IMG/VR virus record: IMGVR_UViG_2531839237_000023
DNA from: a virus
Taxonomy: Duplodnaviria; Heunggongvirae; Uroviricota; Caudoviricetes
Direction: 5' to 3' (one strand)
Length of the DNA stretch: 4,395 bases
Below are positions 429 to 4,395 of this stretch, piece by piece. The position numbers were made by a program, and so were the translations under genes. Each line of letters starts with the position of its first letter. Position 1 is the stretch's first letter. The notes under the pieces were generated by a model, which ran no database searches, was not told the origin of the DNA, and worked only from the letters and a program-made list of their open reading frames with translations.

Positions 429-1478
429 GTGCGGGTATTACTTCGACCTGTTCCGGTACCGGAACTTGGGGTGGTGGTCCTTAAACCAGGCCGTGAATCC
501 ATGCAGGTATTCCATAACCCTCGAGTGCTTGTGGAGCCGGAGCCGAAAAGCATGCGCGGTCTGCCGTCCGGCATCGTCCCTGCCGTTCGCCAGCCGCTGG
601 CGGAGGATAAATCATTACTGCCGTTTTTCAGCAATGAGCGAGTGATTCGTGCTGCTGGTGGCGCTGGCGCACTGTCTGACTGGTTACTGCGCCATGTTAA
701 ATCCTGCCAGTGGCCACATGGCGATTATCATCACAGTGAAACCGTTATTCACCGTTATGGTACCGGCGCAATGGTGTTGTGCTGGCACTGCGACAACCAG
801 TTGCGTGACCAGACCTCCGAATCACTTGAGCAACTTGCTCACCAAAACCTGTCAGCATGGATGATTGACGTCATTCGTCACGCAATGAATGGCACACAGG
901 AGCGTGAATTATCGCTGGCTGAATTATCCTGGTGGGCGGCCTGCAATCAGGTGGTGGATGCACTACCTGAGGCAGTAGCGCGTCGTTCGCTGGGATTACC
1001 AGCGGAAAAAATCCGCTCCGTATACCGTGAGAGTGACATCGTACCGGGAGAACAGACAGCCATCAGCATACTGAAGCAGCGCACAAAAAATATTGCGCTG
1101 CCACTTCACGTCCACCAGCAACAAAATCCACCACAGAAAAAAACGGTTGTCAGTATCGCCGTTGATCCGGAGTCTCCTGAATCGTTCATGAGGCGGCCTA
1201 AACGTTGCCGCTGGGTTAATGAGAAATACACGCGCTGGGTAAAGACACAGCCGTGTGCGTGTTGTGGTAAGCCTGCTGACGATCCGCATCACCTGATTGG
1301 TCATGGTCAGGGGGGAATGGGGACAAAGGCCCACGATATTTTCACGCTACCGTTGTGCCGGGAGCACCACAACGAACTTCATGCAGACCCGCTGGAGTTT
1401 GAGAAAAAGTACGGCTCTCAGATTGAGTTAATTTTTCGTTTTCTTGATCACGCCTTTGCGACTGGCGTGCTCGGGTAA
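429..1478 (+). CDS. DUF968-like lambdoid prophage protein (YdfU-like), 349 aa, with two Cys/His-rich HNH-like modules
   Basis: Long ORF from the track. GTG start at 429 is preceded by GGAGG (420-424); alternative ATG starts at 501 and 552 (the latter with GGAG at 539-542). C-terminal motif CACCGKPADDPHHLIGHG...CREHHNELH and an internal CQWPHGDYHH...CWHCDN module resemble HNH/zinc-finger-type nuclease motifs. Position immediately upstream of rusA and Q is typical of this family. Family name is recalled, not searched. Confidence 0.75.
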   Translation: MRVLLRPVPVPELGVVVLKPGRESMQVFHNPRVLVEPEPKSMRGLPSGIVPAVRQPLAEDKSLLPFFSNERVIRAAGGAGALSDWLLRHVKSCQWPHGDYHHSETVIHRYGTGAMVLCWHCDNQLRDQTSESLEQLAHQNLSAWMIDVIRHAMNGTQERELSLAELSWWAACNQVVDALPEAVARRSLGLPAEKIRSVYRESDIVPGEQTAISILKQRTKNIALPLHVHQQQNPPQKKTVVSIAVDPESPESFMRRPKRCRWVNEKYTRWVKTQPCACCGKPADDPHHLIGHGQGGMGTKAHDIFTLPLCREHHNELHADPLEFEKKYGSQIELIFRFLDHAFATGVLG

Positions 1479-1490
1479 AAGAGGTGACTG

Positions 1491-1862
1491 ATGCTCATAG
1501 ATTTGGTTTTACCTTACCCGCCGACGGTGAACACTTACTGGCGACGCCGTGGCAGCACATATTTTGTATCAAAAGCCGGGGAGCGTTATCGCCGGGCAGT
1601 GGTGCTTATTGTTCGCCAGCAGCGACTGAAATTAAGCCTGTCCGGACGGCTGGCAATAAAAATTATTGCAGAGCCACCGGATAAGCGTCGTCGTGACCTG
1701 GACAACATTCTGAAAGCACCGCTGGATGCGCTGACGCATGCGGAAGTGCTCATTGATGACGAGCAGTTTGATGAAATCAATATTGTGCGCGGTCAGCCTG
1801 TGCCAGGTGGACGGCTGGGCGTGAAGATTTACGAAATCAGAGGTGGTAACGATGGCGCGTGA
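1491..1862 (+). CDS. rusA: Crossover junction endodeoxyribonuclease RusA (Holliday junction resolvase), 123 aa
   Basis: Translation shows RusA hallmarks: [15 protein letters not shown] near the N-terminus, the acidic catalytic block [30 protein letters not shown], and [11 protein letters not shown] near the C-terminus, closely matching E. coli RusA as I recall it. SD GAGGTG at 1481-1486, ATG at 1491. Confidence 0.93.
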
Positions 1863-2223
1863 TATCCAGATGGTTCTTGAGCGATGGGGGGCATGGGCAG
1901 CAAATAATCATGAAGATGTAACATGGCCCTCGATAGCTGCTGGTTTTAAAGGATTAATCCCGACTAAAGTGAAATCACGTCCTAAGTGTTCTGATGATGA
2001 CGCCATGATAATTTGTGGTTGTATGGCACGATTAAACAAGAATAATCAGTATTTGCACGATTTGTTGGTGGATTATTACGTAGGTGGAATGACATTTATG
2101 GCTCTTGCACGTAAGCATAGATGTTCTGATGGGCTTATTGGTAAAAGGCTTTATAAAGCGGAAGGTATTATTGAAGGAATGCTTATGGCTCTGAATGTCC
2201 GGTTAGATATGGATATGCGGTAG
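1852..2223 (+). CDS. Late-gene antitermination protein Q (phage 82 / QuuD-like family), 123 aa
   Basis: Translation [25 protein letters not shown]...[14 protein letters not shown]...[16 protein letters not shown]...[13 protein letters not shown] matches the QuuD/Q82-type antiterminator as recalled. The ATG at 1852 overlaps the rusA stop (TGA 1860-1862), indicating translational coupling. The track's GTG at 1843 is an alternative start. Confidence 0.88.
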
Positions 2224-2314
2224 GGATATATAGTGATGAGGGTTATGTTTTCTGTGTTTATAATTAACATGTTTATTTTTTGATGGTCATGTATTGTGGA
2301 AGGTAGATAAAATG

Positions 2315-2343
2315 TTGCCTGGTGAATTGAAAATATTGATAAT
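2315..2343 (+). promoter_or_regulatory. Candidate sigma70 promoter upstream of the CPBP gene (-35 TTGCCT 2315-2320, 17-bp spacer, -10 GATAAT 2338-2343); possibly the prophage late promoter PR'
   Basis: Hexamers read directly from sequence, 4/6 and 5/6 matches to consensus with optimal spacing. A perfect TATAAT also occurs at 2259-2264 but lacks a good -35. The Q-to-CPBP intergenic region 2224-2374 is very AT-rich. Which element, if any, is PR' with its Q-utilisation site cannot be decided from sequence. Confidence 0.3.
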
Positions 2344-2374
2344 CAATCTTCATCATTAAATAAAAGGAGTGCTT

Positions 2375-3193
2375 ATGTGGATTGTGTTAGTACTGTCACT
2401 GTCAACTCTCAGTTGGCATAAGGTAGTGGCTTTTTCATTGTTGACGGTGTCTGTTGTCCTGGCTGTGCTTAATGATATTATTGATTGGTCGGTGTTATTT
2501 TTTGTTGCTACAATCGTTTTTTTTATTATTTTGAAGTTCAACTGGAAATATAACGCCTGGGCTAAATCTATATATGAAGTTGGCATAGTTTTATCAGCCA
2601 TAGCATTATTTTTCCATCTATGGCCAGGGTTTCACAATCCTGTAGTGCTAAATTCTGTTACTGTTGGCCCTCAAAGTACTCCCTATACAATGTATTTTAA
2701 TTTTGATAAAGCGCTGGTGCCATTTTTGTTAGTCCTGTGTACATCTTCTTTGTTTAAAAAAGAAGTAAAATCAGAAGTGTCTTTGTGGAAGTGGGGGGCT
2801 CTGTCGCTCTCTGTTCCTCTTATCCTGTTTTTGGCTGTTTTTTTTGGTGGATTAAAGCCAGAGATTCATTTTCCTGAGTGGTTGCCAGAGTTTATATTGG
2901 CTAATTTGTTTTTTGTGTCTCTGGCAGAGGAATCATTATTTAGAGGGTATATTCAATCACGGCTATCAGAAGTAACGTCTCCATTGGTTGCATTAATTGT
3001 GGCGGCTTTGTTGTTTGGTTTTTATCACTATTCAGGTGGTGCTTTACTTGTATTATTTGCCACGTTATCTGGTGTTGTGTATGGATTGTCATGGATGTGG
3101 AGTGGGCGTTTGTGGGTTGCCACCCTTTTCCATTTTGGTTTGAATCTGTGTCACTTGTTATTCTTTACCTATCCATTTTTAAAACATAATTGA
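2375..3193 (+). CDS. CPBP family intramembrane glutamic metalloprotease (CAAX protease / Abi family), 272 aa, polytopic membrane protein
   Basis: SD AAGGAG at 2364-2369 with ATG at 2375 (the track's GTG at 2369 sits too close to the SD). Protein is highly hydrophobic with multiple predicted TM segments and carries the three CPBP motifs in canonical order: EESLFR (motif 1, EExxxR), FGFYH (motif 2, FxxxH), HFGLN (motif 3, HxxxN). The gene is much more AT-rich than the upstream phage genes. Confidence 0.85.
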   Translation: MWIVLVLSLSTLSWHKVVAFSLLTVSVVLAVLNDIIDWSVLFFVATIVFFIILKFNWKYNAWAKSIYEVGIVLSAIALFFHLWPGFHNPVVLNSVTVGPQSTPYTMYFNFDKALVPFLLVLCTSSLFKKEVKSEVSLWKWGALSLSVPLILFLAVFFGGLKPEIHFPEWLPEFILANLFFVSLAEESLFRGYIQSRLSEVTSPLVALIVAALLFGFYHYSGGALLVLFATLSGVVYGLSWMWSGRLWVATLFHFGLNLCHLLFFTYPFLKHN

Positions 3194-3273
3194 TTTTTTC
3201 TATGGTTTTAAATTTATAAGACTGAAAAATAGCAGGACGTGACATTTGCATGAAAAATATGCACGGCAAAGCA

Positions 3274-3287
3274 TTTACGTACGTAAA
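3274..3287. repeat. Perfect 14-bp palindrome TTTACGTACGTAAA; nearby shorter inverted repeat TGCAT-N7-ATGCA (3247-3263)
   Basis: Read directly; the sequence equals its own reverse complement. Located in the 286-bp intergenic region between the CPBP gene and the small winged-helix gene. Candidate dimeric-regulator operator; function unknown. Confidence 0.3.
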
Positions 3288-3334
3288 AAATCAGGTATGC
3301 TGTTAAGAGTGGTTATTTCGCCGCATAGCTTGAC

Positions 3335-3356
3335 CCCGCCTCTGAGCGGGTTTTTT
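3335..3356 (+). terminator. Candidate rho-independent terminator (5-bp all-GC stem CCCGC/GCGGG, 6-nt loop, T6 tail) downstream of the CPBP gene
   Basis: Stem 3335-3339 / 3346-3350, loop CTCTGA, then TTTTTT 3351-3356. Short stem, so moderate confidence. A second CCCGC at 3360-3364 could alternatively pair with the GCGGG arm. Confidence 0.5.
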
Positions 3357-3479
3357 GTGCCCGCAAAGTAGCGCAGTGCGTTAAATGTGCTGGTAGTTAT
3401 TAATACAGGTCTTTCAGCTTGCTGGCTTTTTCGACAAGAGTTATTGGTGTGTCACGTTAACCGGAAAGGGTAAAAAGAC

Positions 3480-3677
3480 ATGCTGAAACAGCAGGATATG
3501 ACAGAAACCGCCAGAGTTGTGTTTGATGAATTAAGCGTCACCGAACCGGCGACAGTCGGGGAGATTGCGCAGAATACTTACCTTTCACGCGAACGCTGCC
3601 AGTTAATACTGACCCAGCTGGTTATGGCGGGTCTGGCAGACTATCAGTTCGGTTGTTACAGACGCCTTCAGTCCTGA
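3480..3677 (+). CDS. Small (65 aa) putative winged-helix DNA-binding protein (PapI/FaeA-like pattern)
   Basis: ORF from the track. SD-like GGAAAGGG at 3463-3470 before ATG 3480. Sequence pattern TVGEIAQNTYLSRERCQLILTQLVMAGLA resembles small winged-helix regulators. Stop codon TGA (3675-3677) lies inside a strong terminator hairpin. Family assignment is inference. Confidence 0.55.
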   Translation: MLKQQDMTETARVVFDELSVTEPATVGEIAQNTYLSRERCQLILTQLVMAGLADYQFGCYRRLQS

Positions 3678-3691
3678 AGGCTTTTTTATTT
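3664..3691 (+). terminator. Rho-independent terminator: 7-bp stem GCCTTCA/TGAAGGC, 4-nt loop GTCC, tail TTTTTTATTT
   Basis: Perfect inverted repeat 3664-3670 / 3675-3681 followed by T-run 3682-3687; + strand specific (no T-run on the complement). Immediately terminates the 65-aa ORF. Confidence 0.8.
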
Positions 3692-3711
3692 GTGGTAAAT
3701 GGGCGGCTGGT

Positions 3712-3719
3712 GGGGGGGG
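3712..3719. repeat. Homopolymeric G8 tract within a G-rich block (GGGCGGCTGGTGGGGGGGGCGG, 3701-3722)
   Basis: Read directly. Lies between the terminator at 3664-3691 and the candidate promoter of the AraC-family gene. This is a potential slipped-strand mispairing site. Confidence 0.9.
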
Positions 3720-3747
3720 CGGCACCTGTCAGTCCTTTGCTTATGTG

Positions 3748-3778
3748 TTGATGATAATTTACCTTTTGGGGCTATAAT
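3748..3778 (+). promoter_or_regulatory. Candidate sigma70 promoter for the AraC-family gene (perfect -10 TATAAT 3773-3778; weak -35 TTGATG 3748-3753 at 19-bp spacing)
   Basis: Hexamers read directly. The spacer is suboptimal and there is no extended -10 TG. Location is appropriate, about 35 bp upstream of the ATG at 3814. Confidence 0.3.
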
Positions 3779-3813
3779 TGAGCTAACCAATTGCTAATGA
3801 AAGTAAAATTATA

Positions 3814-4395
3814 ATGGCTGTTGTCTGTTCAGTTATCATGGTTTGCTCCCCAATTAATATTTTTCTTGAAAAGGATACGTTGTCACTTAAGCCAGGCTCA
3901 GTCGTTCTGGCCACCAAATGCATCAGGGAGCTTTTCCTTATGCATTATGGCAAAGTTAAAATTGTCGATATAAGCGAATCCGTCGTAAGTCAATATCTGG
4001 AAAGTCAGCATAAGCTGACGAGGACTCGTCTGACTGACATTCCGCTTTACCTGTTGCTGGAACCCAACAATCCTGCGTTGGCTGCGGCTTTAATTACCAG
4101 CCAGGGATTTTCCGGAGAGGTCACGGATATGTTTCTTATGATGGCCTGCCTGTCTCTGTTTGAAACAGATGAACGGATATTATTATTTTTAAGTGGATGT
4201 TTATCCAGCATAAGTGCCAAAGTCAGGGCGATAATTCAGACAGATATATCAGCAAGCTGGACGCTTGGTGCGATTGCTCTACAGTTGCATATGAGTGAGA
4301 GTTTGTTAAAGATAAAACTGAAAAATGAAGGGGGCATGTTCAGTCGCTTGTTGCTGGAAGAGCGGATGCGTGTTGCTGTAAATATGTTATGTTCC
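3814..4395 (+). CDS. AraC/XylS-family transcriptional regulator, YdeO/AppY/GadX-like subgroup; 3' end truncated by window edge (194 codons present)
   Basis: Frame open from 3787 to the window end with no stop, checked codon by codon. N-terminus MAVVCSVIMVCS resembles the YdeO/AppY N-termini as recalled (M..VCSV..). C-terminal portion SISAKVRAIIQTDISASWTLGAIALQLHMSESLLKIKLKNEGGMFSRLLLEERMRVAVNML is the first HTH of an AraC-type DNA-binding domain. Alternative start ATG 3838. AT-rich with a weak RBS, typical of horizontally acquired AraC regulators. Confidence 0.8.
   Translation, partial: MAVVCSVIMVCSPINIFLEKDTLSLKPGSVVLATKCIRELFLMHYGKVKIVDISESVVSQYLESQHKLTRTRLTDIPLYLLLEPNNPALAAALITSQGFSGEVTDMFLMMACLSLFETDERILLFLSGCLSSISAKVRAIIQTDISASWTLGAIALQLHMSESLLKIKLKNEGGMFSRLLLEERMRVAVNMLCS

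Follow-up and report, generated by a model that had tools for sequence, protein, structure and literature searches.

Rce1, the type II CAAX prenyl endopeptidase, is the founding glutamic intramembrane endopeptidase, and we know of no prenylated CAAX substrates in bacteria. Some bacterial relatives go by the name "Abi", a historical label that is in itself no evidence of abortive infection. Lambdoid prophages, for their part, carry cargo genes (morons) between the antiterminator gene Q and the lysis genes, examples being the porin genes nmpC/lc in DLP12 and PA-2. The proteolytically competent members of the CPBP family are marked by three motifs, EExxxR, FxxxH and HxxxD/N, which are kept in the catalytic proteins MroQ, MrtX and Rce1 and are degenerate in the non-catalytic proteins SpdC, LnsB and SpbR (PMC12260438, PMC11980579). 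SpdC acts as a non-catalytic partner of the glucosaminidase SagB (PMC12260438), whereas the myxosortases, which reside in the inner membrane of Gram-negative bacteria, are catalytic CPBPs and have the EExxxR and HxxxN motifs (PMC11980579). Here, we describe a CPBP-family gene in a 4,395-nucleotide (nt) stretch of viral DNA (IMG/VR record IMGVR_UViG_2531839237_000023; the window), which is the nin/Q region of a lambdoid prophage of the Sp4 type from Shiga-toxin-type Escherichia coli. Judged from its sequence, the gene would be a moron on the side of the lysogen that encodes a CPBP protease competent for catalysis, a reading to which we assign a probability of roughly 0.6.

Sequence identity of the CPBP protein to the described members of the family is low. 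It is 17% to Rce1 (MmRce1, PDB 4CAD), from which the protein differs by an extra N-terminal region with an invariant loop of its own, and 14% to SpdC (also LyrA, the lysostaphin resistance protein A of Staphylococcus aureus, PDB 6U0O), from which it differs in retaining all of the catalytic residues. The EExxxR and HxxxN motifs are common to the CPBP protein and the myxosortases (MrtX, MrtJ, MrtC, MrtP, MrtS and MrtZ), which cleave Cys-containing C-terminal sorting signals. The NCBIfam models MrtP, MrtS and Mrt_core matched the same core stretch weakly and below their cutoffs (33.1/250, 31.3/130 and 29.6/100), as did MrtC (27.4/195) and MrtJ (20.5/75), and no sorting-signal partner was adjacent in the neighbourhoods examined, the genomes themselves not having been searched for MYXO-CTERM- or JDVT-CTERM-type substrates. 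Like the Abi immunity proteins SkkI, PlnI and PlnLR, the CPBP protein is a small, stand-alone, polytopic member of the family, and a protective role of this kind would suit a moron. The Abi immunity genes, however, lie inside Gram-positive bacteriocin loci, whereas the neighbours of the CPBP gene and its homologues are genes for phage regulation and lysis, or else housekeeping genes. The arrangement resembles that of other morons of the lambdoid Q-lysis region, such as stx of the Shiga toxin (Stx) phages, in that a gene of foreign composition stands between Q and the lysis cassette. There is a difference, in that stx is located downstream of the late promoter and its terminator (pR'-tR') and depends on Q, whereas the CPBP module is apparently upstream of the likely pR'-tR'.

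The CPBP protein and its catalytic residues

An in-frame GTG at 2369, given as the start of the gene in a list of open reading frames (ORFs), was considered and rejected. The true start is the ATG at 2375, which is also the one used by RefSeq, and the first two residues that it gives are conserved, M1 in at least 90% of the homologues and W2 in all of them. Here and below, conservation and invariance were scored on an alignment of 46 full-length homologues of 48-84% identity. Membership of the CPBP/Abi family, as proposed in the initial annotation, is borne out by a fold that resembles those of Rce1 and SpdC and by the profile search that it had called for, which matched Pfam PF02517 in a single segment that spans positions 3-92 of the 93 in the profile (E 1.4e-19; score 70.6 bits, gathering cutoff 22.4). 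The three motifs EESLFR, FGFYH and HFGLN, which had been read as CPBP motifs 1-3 in canonical order and spacing, are all present and invariant among the homologues, with N257 at or above 90% (Table 1). By chance such an arrangement is rare, as only 3 of 200,000 shuffles of the CPBP protein gave EE...R, F...H and H...[ND] in this order with similar spacing.

The AlphaFold model of the protein, built on the alignment of the 46 homologues, has a predicted local distance difference test score of 95.8 and a predicted template modelling score of 0.92. Its ten helices match the segments in the hydropathy profile, in agreement with the earlier description of a polytopic hydrophobic protein. A fold search of the PDB with this model returned SpdC and Rce1 as the sole strong matches, whereas sequence and profile searches of the PDB reached no CPBP structure, 4CAD included. 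A library of viral structures yielded only weak CPBP-like matches, for example from Bacillus phage G and giant viruses. A rough topology, derived from the model helices and the positive-inside rule, places 11 lysines and arginines in predicted cytoplasmic loops versus 3 outside. According to this prediction, E186, H253 and N257 are 4-12 residues away from cytoplasm-facing arginines, and H218 is found at the end of a short helix of 15 residues. The modelled topology fits a position of the motif residues within the membrane core and a site in mid-membrane.

Conservation of the protein extends beyond the Pfam domain. A block that is specific to the subfamily (Table 1) has the invariant columns H81, PGFHN 84-88, S101, N109-F-D-K-A113, P116 and F117, and in the region of residues 163-169, E163 and H165 are invariant as well. 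The invariant polar residues outside of the domain (H81, N88, S101, N109, D111, K112, E163 and H165) are specific to the subfamily. They are found in loops that are predicted to be periplasmic and that include a modelled β-hairpin (strands 90-95 and 104-107).

The CPBP gene is under purifying selection. In comparisons with prophage alleles of 83%, 62% and 59% identity, the ratio of nonsynonymous to synonymous divergence (dN/dS) was 0.17, 0.12 and 0.23, respectively, with a dS of 0.53 for the first and larger values for the others. The reading frame has 272 codons in all of these diverged prophage alleles, and the gene is intact even in the defective prophage Sp4 of strain Sakai. Taken as a whole, the sequence evidence makes a catalytically competent glutamic intramembrane endopeptidase the best reading of the CPBP protein, because intact and invariant motifs are combined with a confident model and a low dN/dS. 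The initial annotation had gone further, and had set a likely active protease apart from a homologue that serves immunity only. The motif rule agrees with the first part of this statement, suggesting activity. The contrast itself is not a clean one, since the motifs are reportedly required for Abi-type immunity too.

A cargo slot between Q and a conserved promoter-terminator unit

The CPBP gene is part of a module of about 1.06 kb with a GC content of 0.36, compared to 0.52 on its left and 0.45 on its right. At breakpoints 2213 and 3274, homology to prophages that carry an ORF6N-domain gene (and a Q of about 79% protein identity) stops and then resumes, the left breakpoint being ten bases before the stop codon of Q and the right edge just before a conserved palindrome. 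In two ORF6N prophages (L009, 3315-4118, and L010, 3315-4225), the slot is filled by the ORF6N-domain gene instead of the CPBP gene, and this gene has a strong promoter (TTGACC-18-TATATT) and a terminator of its own. The slot is empty in the related Stx2a phage EH2201 (L007, 3464-3500), in which the stop codon of Q is followed by 38 nt and then by the segment that begins at window position 3301; stx2 is found further down in the same region. The CPBP unit is a moron in a variable cargo slot, because the slot is empty or occupied by ORF6N in other prophages and because the GC content of the unit is foreign. The earlier proposal that the gene is prophage cargo is thus upheld.

Despite the variability of the slot, the CPBP gene is closely associated with this type of Q. 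The Q allele of the window is present in 605 complete genomes, and 571 of these also have the CPBP gene. Among the IMG/VR loci of the subfamily that could be tested, 40 of 43 have Q within 400 nt upstream, and the palindrome is 78-103 nt downstream of the CPBP gene, again in 40 of 43. Alleles of 83% (Escherichia albertii), 62% (E. coli) and 59% identity (Shigella flexneri) are positioned 120-140 nt past a PF06530-type Q and before the lysis genes. Related genes have also entered other moron slots; a relative of 55% identity has an unrelated lambda-type Q (PF03589) on one side and an S-type holin on the other, and one of 47% identity follows a tail-fibre gene. The window itself does not match any complete RefSeq genome of E. 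coli above 95.5% over its whole length. The block 1751-3500, by comparison, is 100% identical to prophage Sp4 of Sakai and to a prophage of an O26 strain, within flanks of 84-97% (84-95% on the DUF968/RusA side and 93-97% on the right). This identical block inside of diverged flanks suggests, at the level of sequence, that Q, the CPBP gene and the downstream promoter unit are exchanged and travel together as one block.

The downstream unit (3274-3356) combines the palindrome TTTACGTACGTAAA, -35-like and -10-like hexamers, the segment GTTAAGAGTGG and a hairpin followed by six T residues (Table 1). It is found after every CPBP allele, however diverged, as well as after the ORF6N cargo. In L009 and L010, the palindrome is changed to TTTACGATCGTAAA with its symmetry kept, and it is missing from a phage whose Q has no more than 45% identity; the unit tracks the type of Q. 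Two prophages of E. albertii (L014 and L015) have no called gene of recognisable function between the unit and the holin. By itself, the terminator region folds no better than shuffled sequences (z -1.03), its support being comparative and not thermodynamic. The unit is not a described RNA family, as no Rfam match was found anywhere in the window even at E values up to 1. In work on StxS, pR' was found to be constitutive, to terminate just downstream in lysogens and to track the phylogeny of Q (PMC7547250). Because the unit at 3274-3356 tracks the type of Q in the same way, it is read by analogy as the probable pR'-tR' of this type of Q, in which the region of the palindrome would probably be the pR'/Q-loading site and the hairpin tR'. 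As a palindrome, the candidate site would differ in arrangement from the Q-binding element of phage 21, which is a direct repeat (bioRxiv 10.1101/651190). A location of pR' in the intergenic region between Q and the CPBP gene, with the latter in the pR' leader, was also considered and is ranked lower, because between alleles with Qs of 76-90% identity this region is not conserved, in contrast to the downstream unit, which is conserved and tracks Q. If the downstream unit is pR'-tR', it would follow that the CPBP gene sits between Q and its promoter, outside of the late operon.

Features that could serve expression of the CPBP gene itself are found in the intergenic region, which comprises 151 nt with a GC content of 0.29. 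It has a perfect TATAAT with a weak -35 (Table 1), and further promoter-like sites that match the consensus at 2284-2356. A terminator scan showed no terminator-like hairpin between this TATAAT and the ATG, and no strong terminator between Q and the CPBP gene. The sole terminator downstream of the CPBP gene is the one that it shares with the putative pR' unit.

Distribution, chromosomal relatives and other features of the window

The identification of the CPBP gene is not new, as public records already carry the same annotation. Its label in RefSeq is "CPBP family intramembrane glutamic endopeptidase", and the identical Sakai copy, ECs_1085 in prophage Sp4, is named "phage CAAX amino terminal protease family protein". 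Sp4 has been described as a defective yet mobilisable lambdoid prophage (PMC2669165). What is added here are the boundaries of the moron, the conserved arrangement of Q, CPBP gene and promoter unit, and the chromosomal orthologues. The gene is present in 572 of 5,426 complete E. coli genomes, about one tenth, with at least 99% identity in 548 of the 572, and many O157:H7 genomes have a copy with 100% identity in the coding sequence. Among the matches listed, the carriers are mostly O157, O26, O103, O111, O145, O121 and O45 strains, and the gene is annotated as a coding sequence in every one of these matches. One complete-genome match (H57) is 818 nt long, one base short. In three IMG/VR loci (L049, L054 and L058), the match is split or partial within otherwise near-identical loci, which could reflect frameshifted copies or sequencing errors. 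Within PHROGs, the full-length family is phrog_13291, of unknown function. Nucleotide and protein searches found the CPBP gene in none of 50,697 deposited phage genomes, in which the downstream conserved segment alone was matched, in Stx phages; because of this absence, the gene is taken to be dispensable for lytic growth. The literature yielded no experimental study of the CPBP gene and no transcript data for it, and the gene is not listed in the supplements of a transcriptome compendium of enterohaemorrhagic E. coli.

Chromosomal relatives that match over the full length, with about 50% identity and a host-like GC content, are found in Providencia, Photorhabdus, Hafnia, Dickeya and Pseudomonas aeruginosa, and an exhaustive profile search returned 601 cluster representatives with full-length matches at an E value of 1e-30 or better. 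In Providencia, Photorhabdus and Hafnia, the orthologue directly follows modF in the mod-gal region, and in Dickeya it is at another site. The P. aeruginosa orthologue is located between gpmI and a cluster of genes for an M23 peptidase, an S41 Ctp protease and a YibQ-like protein; in locus L062, the orthologue overlaps the start of the M23 gene. A recent transfer into P. aeruginosa was considered and rejected, the coding sequence having a GC content of 0.71, like its host. No partner gene is common to all of the chromosomal contexts examined, and their conserved synteny may hint at an envelope-related role. From the sequence comparisons, the phage gene has the appearance of a gammaproteobacterial housekeeping gene that was captured. 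The GC content of the phage copy, 0.36-0.41, points to a low-GC donor.

The remaining genes of the window are listed in Table 1. Its Q protein is a distant relative of Q21 (PDB match to 6p18/6jnx, E 9.6e-8). An ORF of 135 codons at 20-427 matches PHROG 1212 in its last 66 residues only, and RefSeq has in its place a frameshifted pseudogene or a gene of 279 nt, so the ORF as given here is probably too long. The ORF at 3480-3677 is the first one past the putative pR'-tR' and has 91% nucleotide identity in Stx2a phages, where it is upstream of a methylase gene, tRNAs and stx2. It is frameshifted according to the annotation of O157:H7 strain PV15-279 and has other bounds in Sakai (ECs_1086); a terminator-like hairpin of its own comes after it at 3664-3681. 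The top-scoring sigma-70-like site of the scanned region, ATGATA-16-TATAAT (10 of 12 matches), is at 3751-3778, upstream of the AraC/helix-turn-helix gene.

Table 1. Features of the CPBP locus; positions refer to the window, except in the last row, where they refer to the loci named
Feature	Position	Strand	Basis or remark
DUF968 gene	429-1478		
RusA gene	1491-1862		
Q antiterminator gene, Q21 family, PF06530	1852-2223	+	Pfam E 8.7e-52
AT-rich cargo module (moron) with CPBP gene, about 1.06 kb	about 2214-3273	+	GC content, homology breakpoints
Perfect TATAAT, candidate -10 of the moron's own promoter	2259-2264	+	sequence; weak -35
Ribosome-binding site AAGGAG	2364-2369	+	read from sequence; 5 nt before ATG
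CPBP-family gene, 272 aa	2375-3193 (ATG at 2375, stop ends at 3193)	+	ORF, translation, RefSeq and Sakai annotation, AlphaFold
Subfamily-specific conserved block outside the Pfam domain	2615-2725 (aa 81-117)	+	invariant alignment columns
Pfam PF02517 (Rce1-like/CPBP) core domain	2879-3148	+	hmmscan
Motif 1, EESLFR (EExxxR)	2927-2944 (aa 185-190)	+	E185, E186 and R190 invariant
Motif 2, FGFYH (FxxxH)	3014-3028 (aa 214-218)	+	F214 and H218 invariant
Motif 3, HFGLN (HxxxN)	3131-3145 (aa 253-257)	+	H253 invariant, N257 at least 90%
Conserved promoter-terminator unit	3274-3356	+	comparative; terminator scan
Perfect 14-bp palindrome TTTACGTACGTAAA	3274-3287		first six bases are the -35-like TTTACG
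-10-like TATGCT	3296-3301		16-nt spacer after the -35-like hexamer
GTTAAGAGTGG	3302-3312		
Hairpin CCCGCC/GGCGGG plus T6	3335-3356		
Helix-turn-helix-like ORF, 65 aa	3480-3677		PHROG 331; weak TrmB-type winged-helix match, E 0.0034
AraC/helix-turn-helix gene			start only; runs off the window end
Chromosomal orthologues	L005 6001-6831; L060 4001-4828; L061 4001-4918; L064 5001-5819		

Possible roles of the CPBP protein

On the reading that we favour, the moron would have been inserted between Q and a Q-dependent late promoter-terminator unit, and would go back to a gene that is chromosomal in other Gammaproteobacteria. Transcription of the CPBP gene would come from a promoter of its own within the AT-rich intergenic region, from read-through out of Q, or from both, and not from the late promoter, and would end at the shared terminator. 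The protein would be proteolytically active in the inner membrane. If it works as MmRce1 and MrtX do, a water molecule would be activated by E186 together with H218, and the oxyanion hole would be made up of H253 and N257. It would serve the lysogen and not the production of virions, and its targets may be membrane-embedded or membrane-proximal peptides or proteins, such as an incoming toxin, a phage component or a host envelope protein. Several observations weigh against this reading. In structure, the model matches SpdC best, which is one of the non-catalytic members. The position of the CPBP gene next to Q is invariable, which could point to a role in the lytic programme. Consensus matches such as those taken here as promoters are common in AT-rich DNA, with 13 found in 1800-4395 and 6.4 expected. 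The neighbourhood has no bacteriocin gene, no defence partner and no candidate for a substrate, and the literature search found no biochemical or genetic evidence for the CPBP protein or its close homologues.

Any one specific role, be it immunity, exclusion or envelope processing, is unlikely when taken singly. The initial annotation had suggested superinfection exclusion, immunity to a toxin or processing of a host envelope protein, and none of the three is supported by the present results. Among such roles, the CPBP protein may be a lysogenic-conversion factor that is expressed from the repressed prophage and cleaves an incoming membrane-targeting agent or a host envelope protein, which we consider unlikely in so specific a form; the incoming agent would be a phage ejection protein, a colicin, a microcin or a host peptide. 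A PADLOC search, with E values up to 0.1, found no defence family that matches the CPBP protein. One version of a protective role, equally doubtful, is immunity of the type provided by SkkI, PlnI and PlnLR in lactic acid bacteria, which would shield lysogens from a membrane-active peptide. A stand-alone protective gene of the same Pfam family suits a lysogenic-conversion moron, and some members of the subfamily are named "CAAX amino terminal protease self-immunity", albeit as automatic labels. Yet every characterised example comes from a Gram-positive bacterium, and no bacteriocin, toxin or export gene is found beside the CPBP gene or in the 12 homologue contexts examined. The protein could instead be a non-catalytic membrane scaffold or regulator that binds and modulates a host membrane enzyme without cleaving it. 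Such a function has models in S. aureus SpdC, which binds SagB, SpbR, which inhibits the signal peptidase SpsB, and LnsB, a partner in lipoprotein N-acylation. The known non-catalytic members, however, have degenerate motifs (PMC12260438), whereas here the motif residues are kept in 46 sequences with identities as low as 48%. Such conservation would be difficult to account for if there were no catalysis, and a scaffold is rather improbable.

The location of the CPBP gene is what speaks for a lytic-cycle gene, the last of the delayed-early transcript and reached by read-through from Q. A protease acting in phage development could target a holin, an antiholin, a spanin lipoprotein or a host membrane protein, and so affect the timing of lysis or the takeover of the envelope. 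Consistent with this, the CPBP gene directly follows Q and precedes the lysis cassette in prophages whose CPBP alleles share as little as 59% identity, the unrelated lambda-type Q precedes it in L056, no strong terminator separates it from Q, and it is exchanged with Q and the promoter as one fully identical block. On the other hand, the slot is empty or ORF6N-filled in sister phages with the same type of Q, and the CPBP gene has not been found in any of the sequenced phages. Close relatives are stand-alone chromosomal genes without phage context, another phage copy is found after tail-fibre genes, and base composition sets the gene apart from the phage backbone as foreign. We regard a lytic-cycle role as about as improbable as a scaffold. 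The least probable explanation is that of a neutral passenger, kept only through the recent spread of the prophage block. The near-identity of most copies, which leaves little time for decay within E. coli, and the split matches at 3 of 44 IMG/VR loci, as possible frameshifts, are in line with a passenger, but dN/dS values of 0.12-0.23 between prophage alleles at a dS of at least 0.5, a frame of 272 codons in all diverged alleles, and invariant catalytic residues are not.

If the CPBP protein does act as a protease on the side of the lysogen, in exclusion or immunity, this would be the first proteolysis-dependent function of either kind for a CPBP enzyme in Gram-negative bacteria, and the prophage would supply its host with a gene that other Gammaproteobacteria have on the chromosome. 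The CPBP gene is an inexpensive and well-defined experimental target, being uncharacterised, under purifying selection and equipped with clear catalytic residues. Few substrates are known for the prokaryotic CPBP proteases, and a phenotype for this one would help the field. Furthermore, the position of the gene between Q and the probable late promoter offers a way into how cargo is wired into the regulatory circuits of lambdoid phages.

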